Under the pieces are notes generated by a model that was not told where the DNA came from, searched no databases, and saw only the letters and a list, made by a program, of their open reading frames with translations. From the IMG/VR virus record IMGVR_UViG_2703718811_000003, positions 1 to 9,779 of that record: 9,779 bases of DNA; one strand, 5' to 3'. The position numbers and the translations under genes were made by a program. Source of the stretch: a virus. Its lineage: Duplodnaviria; Heunggongvirae; Uroviricota; Caudoviricetes. Positions 6,496 to 9,779 of the stretch are shown one piece after another (position 1 is the first letter of the stretch; each line of letters opens with the position of its first letter).

Positions 6496-8654
6496 GTGTT
6501 GTTGTTTCGGGGACGCTGAAATCTCCTGATGGTGAGGCGATATCAGGAGCAAATATTACCCTGACGGCGCTGACAGTTTCACCGGATGCGCTCAGCGGCA
6601 CCAGTGCGTCGGCAGTGACCCGTGAAGGTGGATATTACGGAATGACGATGGATCCGGGGGAGTATGCGGTTTCGGTGACGGTGAAAGGGAAGACTGCTGT
6701 CTACGGACGTGTGCGTATTGAGGGGACCGAAAGTACGGTGACGCTCAATATGCTGTTACGCCGCAGTCTTGTTGAGGTTAGCATACCCGGAGAACTGCTG
6801 ACAGATTTCCGGCAGATACAGAATAATGTGGCTGATGACCTTGCCAATATTCGTCGCCTGAATGAAGACACGGCGACAAAAAACACTCAGGCCACACAGT
6901 CAAAAGAAAGTGCAGCAGCCAGTGCGAAGAGTGCATCTGACAGTGCAAAGACGGCAACCAGCAGGGCGGCTGAAGCCGGACAAAAAGCGACTGATGCCAC
7001 TGAGGCTGCGACCCGTGCAGTCACAGCAGCGGGGAATGCAGAGGAAAGCTCGACCCGTGCCGGAGAGTCTGAAAAAGCCGCCGGAGCTGATGCAGAAAAA
7101 GCCAGACAGCATGCTGAAAAGGCCAGGCTGGCGCAGGAGAGCGCCGGAGAGATCCTTAAGCGGGCAGAGGCTGCCACTGTCAGTGCTGAAGAGGCCAGAC
7201 GTATGGCTGAGAATGCACGGGGGCCCCGGGGGCCTCAGGGAGAAACTGGTCCGAAGGGGGATGTCGGTCCTAAAGGCGAAACAGGTCCAGTGGGCCCTCA
7301 AGGGCCCGCAGGGCCGAAAGGTGAGCGTGGTGACGTTGGTGCTCAGGGGGCTGTAGGGCCCGCTGGTCCGCGTGGTGAGAAGGGCGAACAGGGGGAGCGA
7401 GGACCGCAGGGAATACCAGGCCTGAAGGGGGATACCGGAGAGCGGGGGCCTAAAGGGGACCAGGGGGATATGGGGCCAAAAGGCGAGAAAGGTGATCCGG
7501 GAGGTCCTGCAGGCCCGCAAGGTCCTAAAGGTGAACGAGGAGAAGCCGGACCACAGGGACCGATGGGAGCACGAGGTGAGCGTGGGGAGACTGGCCCCCG
7601 AGGTGAACCAGGTCCTGCAGGTCCGAGAGGCGAACGAGGAGAGACCGGACCTCAGGGACCTCGTGGAGAGCCAGGTCCGGCAGGCAGCGCTGCAAATGTG
7701 GCTGATGCGACGACGGCACAGAAGGGAATTGTGCAGTTAAGCAGCGCAACGGACAGTGATGATGAAGCGAAGGCAGCCACCCCGAAAGCGGTGAAAGCGG
7801 CAATGGATGTGGCAAATGAAGCGAAAACAAAGGCAGAAGAGGCTGCAGCAGGAGGTGGTGTTCCCGGTCCGAAAGGAGATAAAGGGGACTCGGGGCCAGC
7901 AGGTCCGGCTGGGCCGAGGGGCGTTCAGGGACCGAAAGGTGATCCCGGCCCCCAGGGACCAAAGGGGGATACTGGCGCTGCTGGGGCAAAGGGTGAGAAA
8001 GGAGCCACCGGCGCAACCGGGCCACAGGGACCTAAAGGGGATACGGGAGCCGCAGGCCCGGCAGGACCGCAGGGACCTAAAGGGGATACGGGAGCCGCAG
8101 GCCCGGCAGGACCGCAGGGACCTAAAGGGGATACGGGAGCTGCAGGCCCGGCAGGCGCACAGGGACCAAAAGGTGACAAAGGCGATCCGGGGGTGGCTGG
8201 ACCAGCAGGTCCGGCAGGTGCGCCGGGGCCGAAAGGCGATAAAGGTGATCCGGGAGTAGCAGGTCCAGCAGGTCCGGAAGGGCCGCAGGGACCGAAGGGA
8301 GACACTGGAGCCCCCGGGCAAGGAACAGAACTGCTTACTACTGCCAATACATGGACTCAGGCACAAACTTTTAATGGAGGTATTAATGGAAATTTGACGG
8401 TAAACGGAAACGGATCATTTAACGATGTTCAGATCCGCTCGGATAAACGCAACAAGCGAAATCTGGTAAAACTGGATAATGCGTTAGATCGTCTGGAGGC
8501 ACTTACTGGTTATCTTTACGAGATACAGTACTCTGCCGACGGTTGGCAAACGTCGGTTGGTTTAATTGCTCAGGATGCACAAAAAGCCTTGCCTGAACTG
8601 GTACCCGCAGTGGCGATATTTTTATCTCTTACGGCAAAAACAAAATGCGGGTGA
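6492..8654 (+). CDS. stf: side tail fiber protein (lambda Stf-like N-terminal domain, two collagen-like Gly-X-Y blocks, C-terminal S74-type intramolecular chaperone motif)
   Basis: GTG start with GGAGGTGGAG RBS. N-terminus ([23 protein letters not shown]…[11 protein letters not shown]) parallels lambda Stf (ISGVLKDGTGKPVQNCTIQL…GQYSVILQVDG). Conserved Stf motif [14 protein letters not shown]…[12 protein letters not shown] is present. Gly-X-Y runs at about 7221-7685 and 7860-8318. C-terminal SDKRNKRNL…[17 protein letters not shown]…[16 protein letters not shown] matches the Peptidase_S74 autocleaving chaperone signature. Confidence 0.9.
8025..8159 (+). repeat. three near-perfect tandem 45-bp repeats inside the second collagen-like block
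   Basis: Unit cagggacctaaaggggatacgggagccgcaggcccggcaggaccg at 8025-8069, 8070-8114 and 8115-8159 (third copy has minor variants). Each encodes [16 protein letters not shown] further imperfect ~50-bp duplication lies at about 8166-8275. Confidence 0.9.
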
Positions 8655-9779
8655 GAGGTGGCTTTAAGTCAGCCAGTGATGCGCGTAAGTACATTGATTC
8701 ACATCGTGATGAGCTTGTTCGTCATGTGAAGGAGATGCGAGAGATTTCGCGTGAGGAGCAGCGTAACGCCACCAACCGCGACCGTACCGGACCAGAACGC
8801 CGCAAGGGGAATGTTTCACCGGAGCAGTTCAGTGATGCGTTTGGTTTCCGTGGTGTGCAGTTTGGTAACTACGTGGAAGGTCCGCGTCGTCAGGCTGATT
8901 TGAACCGGGCTTATGACTCGCTGCATGACCTTGCGGAAGTACTGAATGTACCGACAAAAGCGCTTTCCCTGAACGGTCGTCTTGGCCTGGCATTTGGTGC
9001 CCGTGGTAAGGGTAAGGCGGCAGCACACTATGAGCCGGGTGAGGTGGCAATCAACCTGACAAAAGGTAACGGACCGGGTGCGCTGGCGCACGAATGGTTC
9101 CATTCTCTGGATAATTATTTTGGTCGTTATGACGTTTCCAATGACGGGAAAATTACGTCAGGTGGCGACTTTATGACGGAAGCACAGCGTGTCAGGCGCA
9201 TATTTAAAGACGGCAGGTATGTTGATGCTGAATATCCGGTACGTCAGGAGGTTTACGACGCTTTTAAAGGTGTGATTCAGGCCATTAAAAACAGTGACAT
9301 GCCGCGTCGTTCAGCGCTTCTCGATGAGGTGCGCTCAAAACCGTACTGGTCAACGGATGTTGAAATGGCGGCACGTGCCTTTGAGCGTTATGTTCAGGAT
9401 AAGGCGCGTATGGCTGGCGTGGAGAATGATTATCTGGTCAATATCCGTAAGGCACCTGAGCACAACACAGATAACACCTACGCTTATCCGACGAATGCGG
9501 AACTGGATGGCGGTATTCGTGAGGCATTCGATCACCTGTTCCGCACCCTGAAAACCCGTGAGACGGACAAGGGCGTTGCGTTTTATTCCCGTAAGGGCGT
9601 TACCCGCACACCTGAAGGTAATCTCATTTCGGATGTTAACCGTAGTGCGGAAGCCAAAGGCAGCCCGGTCCCGCAGGTTGAAGCGGTTGCCCGTGGCGTG
9701 ATGAGCGGCATTAAGGACAGTGACCTGAAGGTCCGTGTGGTGAAGTCACAGAAAGAGGCTGAAGCGCTGGCGGGTGAAT
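8645..9779 (+). CDS. HExxH-motif protein, putative Zn-metallopeptidase-like domain; N-terminal 378 aa of a longer protein that runs off the window, possibly a polyvalent-type phage protein
   Basis: Frame is open from 8597 to the window end. ATG 8645 overlaps the fiber stop by 10 nt. HEWFH at 9089-9103 in the context [20 protein letters not shown]. No stop before the window end. The family assignment is from memory of MPTase-type domains in large polyvalent proteins and is not verified. Confidence 0.7.

Follow-up and report, generated by a model that had tools for sequence, protein, structure and literature searches.

An HExxH-bearing reading frame behind a prophage tail-fibre gene as an internal fragment of the Shiga toxin phage giant polyvalent protein gene

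The reading frame at 8645 and the tail-fibre gene before it

The window, which here means the whole stretch of DNA analysed, comprises 9,779 nucleotides (nt) of the IMG/VR virus record IMGVR_UViG_2703718811_000003. An exact-sequence look-up of the tail-fibre protein encoded in it showed that it is identical to an entire draft-genome contig, LOIL01000133.1 of assembly GCA_001607685.1. On its plus strand a lateral tail-fibre gene of the phi24B gp61 type (720 codons, 6492-8654, with its TGA at 8652-8654) is followed by an open reading frame (ORF) that runs from an ATG at 8645 to the end of the window at 9779. An earlier note on this DNA, drawn by an HExxH motif in that frame, had taken it for a metallopeptidase gene translationally coupled to the fibre gene. 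Comparison with intact relatives gives it another identity: the ORF is made up of codons 1149-1526 of the giant polyvalent protein gene of Shiga toxin (Stx) phages, cut at its 5' side by a deletion and at its 3' side by the end of the contig, and what is particular to the window is a strain-specific deletion scar.

The giant gene is represented by orf71 of phage VT2-Sakai (BAA84354.1, 2,806 amino acids (aa)), ORF78 of P13803 and gp47 of phi24B (2,811 aa). The open frame of 378 codons, whose translation is confirmed as first given, is identical to orf71 at 377 of 378 residues, and it matches phrog_616 with E=1.9e-260 over profile positions 1136-1513 of 2793. The corresponding DNA aligns at 99.4% nucleotide identity to positions 9001-10178 of L001 of VT2-Sakai, internal to the coding sequence at 5600-14020, and the alignment is gapless; a frameshift closing the frame, which the earlier note had entertained, is thereby set aside. 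The homology to the giant gene does not begin at the ATG. It begins at 8602, 43 nt further 5' and in the same frame, which is open back to 8597, and the ATG at 8645 is the internal Met1149 of orf71. No Shine-Dalgarno sequence was found within 20 nt 5' of this ATG (TCTCTTACGGCAAAAACAAA), nor any plus-strand promoter-like site in a scan around the point at 8602/8603 where fibre and giant-gene sequences meet (junction 2). Immediately past the ATG lies the C-terminal half of a Pfam LPD5 domain (8648-8839, plus strand; profile positions 82-144 of 144). The other half has been deleted; intact orf71 carries LPD5 at residues 1064-1213, over profile positions 2-144. The scar is revealed because homology begins 5' of the supposed start and because half a domain stands at the N-terminus. 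The window does not hold the gene at its full length of ~2,800 codons, nor its native start or the orf66-orf70-type block that normally precedes it. The giant gene itself was already known, and near-identical copies are in GenBank.

A side observation concerns the same gene in the Escherichia phage phi191 record, where it is apparently annotated as several shorter proteins. Among these are the BFVD matches A0A096XES0 (534 aa) and A0A096XES8 (106 aa); the short proteins are 98-100% identical to pieces of the HExxH module, and the splitting points to frameshifts or sequencing errors in the phi191 entry.

The fibre gene is damaged at the same point. Its Pfam matches comprise the prophage tail fibre N-terminal domain, collagen repeats, the phage tail fibre repeat and the start of the S74 endosialidase intramolecular chaperone, and the Peptidase_S74 match stops at fibre residue 704, that is, at junction 2. 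The last 42 native codons are missing; in their place the frame continues through 16 aberrant codons (8604-8651), which are giant-gene DNA in the wrong frame, and then meets the TGA. The fused fibre protein was found by exact-sequence look-up to be encoded only on LOIL01000133.1 among public contigs. The overlap of start and stop that had suggested coupling is real insofar as the ATG lies 7 nt 5' of the TGA, but it does not mark the start of a gene, since this ATG encodes an internal methionine. Nor does it join two complete genes or recur in relatives: the junction is unique to the contig, and both partners are truncated. In intact relatives, P13803 among them, the gene directly 3' of the fibre gene is a Gp38-like adhesin gene of 170 aa (with a Gp38_N domain in P13803), and the giant gene begins ~9 kb further downstream. 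The proposal that a peptidase gene has replaced the tail-fibre assembly gene falls away with this arrangement, the native neighbour having been deleted here, and so does that of a fibre-coupled peptidase. The overlap between the fibre TGA and the giant-gene ATG arose through the deletion and not by selection; judged from the sequence, both the gene start at 8645 and its coupling to the fibre gene are accidents of that deletion. Identification of the ORF product as a tail-fibre assembly chaperone was also considered and rejected, since it has no Tfa or Gp38 domain match and is of the wrong size.

The fibre gene has features of its own. Direct repeats with an offset of ~45 nt and 88% identity lie inside the collagen-like (G-X-Y) shaft at 7988-8173. 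Shaft length varies among relatives: several phages align in 2-3 separate segments, and for the phi24B/PA28 group the match reaches no further than 7931. In a promoter and terminator scan near the junction, one weak terminator-like hairpin was found within the fibre gene, such hairpins being no commoner than in shuffled sequences.

Two junctions in a defective prophage

Three blocks, with two junctions between them, make up the window, and each matches 933W-type Stx phages at 96-99.9% identity. Block A (10-4897) holds a nanS-p esterase gene, holin, lysozyme, antirepressor, Rz and bor genes and the start of terS; it is ~96% identical to many O157 prophages, and over its final 598 nt it agrees with phage P13803 at 98.8%. 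Block B (4896-8603; ORF62', ORF63, adaptor and fibre) is 99.9% identical to P13803, and block C (8602-9779), the internal stretch of the giant gene, shows its 99.4% identity to dozens of Stx phages besides VT2-Sakai. At each boundary the neighbouring blocks have 2 nt (TA) in common, the parental sequences being otherwise unrelated there.

Junction 2 (8602/8603) joins, across its 2-nt TA microhomology, the fibre gene as left parent to codon 1134 of the giant gene as right parent, and ~12.6 kb are missing relative to P13803. Gone are the 3' end of the fibre gene (42 codons), the Gp38-like adhesin gene, the nozzle/needle (tail-tip) region, lom and several small genes, along with 3.4 kb (1,133 codons) from the start of the giant gene. 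Junction 1 (4896/4897), again with a 2-nt TA microhomology, joins terS codon 121 to ORF62 codon 29 and yields two chimeric or truncated ORFs (4536-4928 and 4891-5298). Here ~7.2 kb are missing relative to P13803: the rest of terS, terL, the portal and major capsid protein genes, and others. No match crosses either boundary in 50,697 phage records or 5,426 complete E. coli genomes, and a 36-mer spanning junction 2 has zero exact matches in one-genome-per-species contigs or in IMG/VR viral contigs. The right-hand parents of both junctions open with TACC (ATTACCGGAAG at 4890-4905 and AATACCCGCAG at 8596-8612). The shared TA microhomology and TACC could be chance, or could hint that both junctions were made by one mechanism or arose together in one complex event.

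The sequence comparisons thus point to a source that is very probably a defective 933W-type (Sepvirinae) prophage carrying two microhomology deletions. In the course of events proposed, two such deletions would have hit a 933W-type Stx prophage, the one at junction 2, of ~12.6 kb, fusing the fibre gene to the giant gene. The fibre frame would then have entered giant-gene DNA, run through 16 out-of-frame codons and met a stop, with Met1149, 7 nt before it, mimicking a coupled start. Since terL, portal and capsid genes are deleted, this prophage cannot package DNA, and the giant-gene fragment is not packageable by its own prophage. The undecayed state of the fragment (377/378 aa) fits a recent deletion, and the fragment is best read as a recent pseudogene.

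The HExxH module and the intact giant protein

The HExxH motif that drew attention to the ORF lies in a conserved zincin-like metallopeptidase (MPTase) module at 8807-9559 (plus strand, ORF residues 55-305). From the N-terminus, the core runs through a helix, a sheet of three strands, the helix with HExxH, an insert that varies, and a helix bearing glutamates (the Glu helix). The motif itself, HEWFH, is encoded at 9089-9103 on the plus strand (residues 149-153; H1297, E1298 and H1301 in full-length numbering) and is predicted to be catalytic and zinc-binding. Conservation was assessed in 36 homologues with a mutual identity of at most ~57%, and H149, E150, W151 and H153 are invariant in all of them. 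The earlier note's reading of it as more than a coincidence is thereby upheld, as it is by the zincin fold of the module. Conservation also singles out Asp156, three residues past HExxH (9110-9112, plus strand), and, together with the structural model, His128 in the second core beta-strand (9026-9028, plus strand). In ORF numbering, the invariant positions of the set are F-G-F-x-G-V-x-F-G-N, A-F-G-x-x-G, A127-H128, I-N-L, H149-E150-W151-x-H153 and D156, and then E240, A243-R244 and F246-E247. The last of these fall in Pfam LPD1 (9320-9559, plus strand; residues 226-305), which contains the invariant E240 (9362-9364) and E247 (9383-9385), with a conserved Y234-W235 just before them, and which accompanies the HExxH part in 36/36 homologues.

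LPD1 (87.4 bits) and LPD5 (73.4 bits) stand well above the Pfam gathering thresholds (cut-off 27), and the assignment to the polyvalent-protein class, which the earlier note had made by resemblance, holds. Of the domains it had proposed to look for with hidden Markov models (HMMs), LPD-type domains were found and MPTase-PolyVal was not. The latter (PF18818) matches neither the window protein at E<=0.1 nor any of the 36 homologues at E<=1. Pfam assigns no family to ORF residues ~66-225, and relaxed Pfam searches with the HExxH part gave no peptidase family, with stray M13/M91 matches (E 0.05-0.1) in 2/36 homologues. As the Pfam MPTase-PolyVal model does not match, the module is filed under the published class and fold and not under that HMM. 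It is widespread: residues 55-320 match 5,752 clusters at E<=1e-3 (HMMER, 1.84 billion representative proteins), nearly all of the matches being internal to proteins of 1,500-5,700 aa.

A confident AlphaFold2 model built from the 36-sequence alignment (predicted local distance difference test (pLDDT) 86.2, predicted template modelling score (pTM) 0.87) has the zincin core topology, with HExxH on a helix at model positions 93-108 and E240 and E247 on a long helix at model positions 184-202. The core fold of the module resembles those of solved zincins. The nearest folds are Pro-Pro endopeptidase (PPEP), lethal factor and MtfA, followed by thermolysin, neprilysin/PepO, botulinum light chains and M1 aminopeptidases, and the BFVD matches are polyvalent and MuF/head-morphogenesis proteins. 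Foldseek against the PDB returned no match for the module, and PDB sequence and profile searches with the ORF and the 36-sequence alignment returned none either. On the strength of conservation and the model, HEWFH is the predicted active site of a known zincin-like peptidase class. The third zinc ligand would be E240, by likeness to the M34 enzymes, and in the model LPD1, catalogued as a domain of unknown function, appears to close the zincin-like module as its C-terminal subdomain, with a probable zinc-ligand helix.

What does the intact protein do? In orf71 LPD5, the HExxH module and LPD1 follow one another in that order, after ~1,060 N-terminal residues in which no Pfam domain was found; MuF_C (1763-1852) and LPD38 are present as well. 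The only HExxH module found in orf71 occupies residues ~1200-1455, several hundred residues N-terminal to MuF_C. The orthologous gp47 of phi24B (2,811 aa; with LPD5, LPD1, LPD38 and MuF-C) was found by mass spectrometry to be an abundant protein of purified virions. The cryo-EM map does not show it, and the preprint that reports this (10.64898/2026.04.10.717836) proposes that gp47 is an ejection protein carried inside the capsid. The earlier note had imagined a virion-associated effector, and virion association is thus reported for a full-length orthologue, not for the window fragment. Delivery of gp47 into the host is a proposal of the same preprint, which also attributes the metallopeptidase to MuF-C and suggests peptidoglycan degradation. 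Iyer et al. 2017 united polyvalent MPTase domains with lethal factor by HHpred, described a phage-type clade marked by a conserved His in strand 2 and by an Asp at the third position past HExxH, and offered two roles, processing of the protein's own giant polyprotein or cutting of host proteins (PMC5512222). The intact protein would travel inside the capsid and probably leave it together with the DNA. The module in it most likely cleaves protein, which may be the giant polyprotein after packaging or ejection, or host proteins. The nearest folds are protein endopeptidases, and this makes a peptidoglycan-cleaving role less likely.

Rival readings, neighbouring genes and known systems

Could the junctions be artefacts of draft assembly, the contig a chimera, and the real fibre and giant genes intact and ~9 kb apart? 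The window is a short draft contig with two unusual junctions no more than ~3.7 kb apart, and the absence of both from complete E. coli genomes, phage records, the one-genome-per-species set and IMG/VR fits a chimera. However, the parents share merely 2 nt per junction, unlike those of a k-mer misjoin and as is typical of illegitimate-recombination deletions, and the contig is on record in 2 samples. Deletion-riddled lambdoid prophages are common in Shiga toxin-producing Escherichia coli, which also counts against a chimera, so this explanation is considered improbable. A distinct metallopeptidase gene of at least 378 aa, evolved to couple with the fibre gene in place of the assembly gene and encoding a fibre effector or receptor-processing enzyme, is hardly credible. 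It would account for the ATG overlapping the fibre stop and for a genuine HExxH motif, but it is contradicted by the in-frame giant-gene homology from 43 nt 5' of the ATG, which itself corresponds to Met1149 of a 2,806-aa protein, as well as by the halved LPD5, by a fibre gene truncated and frameshifted at the same point, and by the occurrence of the arrangement on one contig only.

A fragment left by deletion might nevertheless be expressed. The C-terminal part of the giant protein (up to ~1,658 aa: MPTase-LPD1, MuF_C and LPD38) could still be made by termination-reinitiation from the fibre ORF and keep a function, for example by being packaged into a co-resident helper Stx phage or by acting in the lysogen; the ATGCGGGTGA overlap is compatible with this, the coding sequence is undecayed, and MuF_C, with its putative capsid targeting, lies downstream in the reference. 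Against it stand the lack of a Shine-Dalgarno sequence, the cut through a domain and the single occurrence of the arrangement; the undecayed state is equally expected after a recent deletion, and the downstream part of the gene is beyond the window. Such expression is judged very unlikely. Likewise highly improbable is a more speculative idea, that the remnant is a parasitic donor of an altered ejection or effector protein, its reinitiated C-terminal portion (up to ~1,658 residues) being packaged via MuF_C into the capsids of a co-resident intact Stx phage. On a more modest reading, LPD1 would be no independent domain but the zinc-ligand (Glu) helix subdomain of a split M34-like gluzincin found in >5,000 clusters of giant phage and mobile-element proteins. 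As to function, the HExxH module may be structural or non-catalytic, or a peptidoglycan-degrading aid to an ejection conduit crossing the wall, the latter in keeping with the phi24B preprint (10.64898/2026.04.10.717836). This seems unlikely, for the catalytic Glu, both His, the Asp at +3 and two Glu on the partner helix are invariant, the nearest folds are those of protein or peptide endopeptidases and not the usual cell-wall peptidase folds, and the preprint ties the activity to MuF-C, not to the HExxH module.

Some points weigh against the reading of the ORF as a deletion-cut piece of the giant gene with a proteolytic module. Junctions 4896/4897 and 8602/8603 come from a draft assembly, and the contig stops short of the remaining ~1,280 codons of the giant gene. 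Termination-reinitiation at the ATG/TGA overlap might still yield some truncated product, and proteolysis by the giant protein is a prediction. There is little new biology in the window: the gene was known, a 2017 paper had set out its domain class, and a report of 2026 had placed the orthologue in virions. The precise placing of the HExxH module, with H1297, E1298 and H1301 of orf71 and a lethal-factor/PPEP-like gluzincin fold, between LPD5 and LPD1 is a small gain for annotation, and there is a caution of wider use, namely that what looks like a novel gene arrangement where a contig ends may be the scar of a deletion.

The other genes of the window belong to the prophage background. Two intact virion genes lie 5' of the fibre gene on the plus strand (5282-6495), one for a structural protein (phrog_437) and one for an SU10-type tail adaptor (phi24B gp62-like), the attachment partner of the fibre. 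Near the left edge, the C-terminal part (DUF6645) of a NanS-p type SASA esterase gene occupies 95-871, the start of the contig cutting the gene; a processed form of this esterase is reported to decorate the phi24B capsid (preprint 10.64898/2026.04.10.717836). An intact P22-type antirepressor gene (2612-3181) sits within the lysis cassette, with the lysozyme gene on one side and the Rz gene on the other, and an intact Bor lipoprotein gene (3834-4127) lies on the minus strand, opposite to the cassette. An antirepressor gene within the cassette and a Bor gene are both typical of Stx prophages.

Among known systems, VT2-Sakai orf71, P13803 ORF78 and phi24B gp47 are the same gene, sharing the order LPD5, HExxH module and LPD1. 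In contrast to orf71 and gp47, the copy in the window has lost its first 1,133 codons and follows a truncated fibre gene in a different frame, and the prophage that carries it has no terL, portal or capsid genes. The polyvalent MPTases (PMC5512222) share with the module the core topology, the H128 and D156 signatures and the setting in a giant phage protein with LPDs and MuF. The module departs from them in that PF18818 is silent, the part with the Glu helix is annotated separately as LPD1, and an insert of ~85 residues separates the catalytic helices. Anthrax lethal factor, the Pro-Pro endopeptidases (MEROPS M34) and MtfA are 12-15% identical to it in sequence, with no sequence-level match in the PDB; their context, that of secreted toxins or of a cytosolic regulator, differs from that of the module. 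The N4 gp50 virion RNA polymerase and P1 DdrB/DarB are likewise large, head-packaged proteins delivered with the DNA, with a zincin-like MPTase proposed to process them (PMC5512222), whereas orf71 has no RNA polymerase, methylase or helicase Pfam domain. Genes of the lambda Tfa or T4 Gp38 type share with the ORF only a position 3' of a fibre gene and resemble it in neither sequence nor domains; the closest kin of the frame at 8645 are the intact giant genes of the Stx phages themselves.

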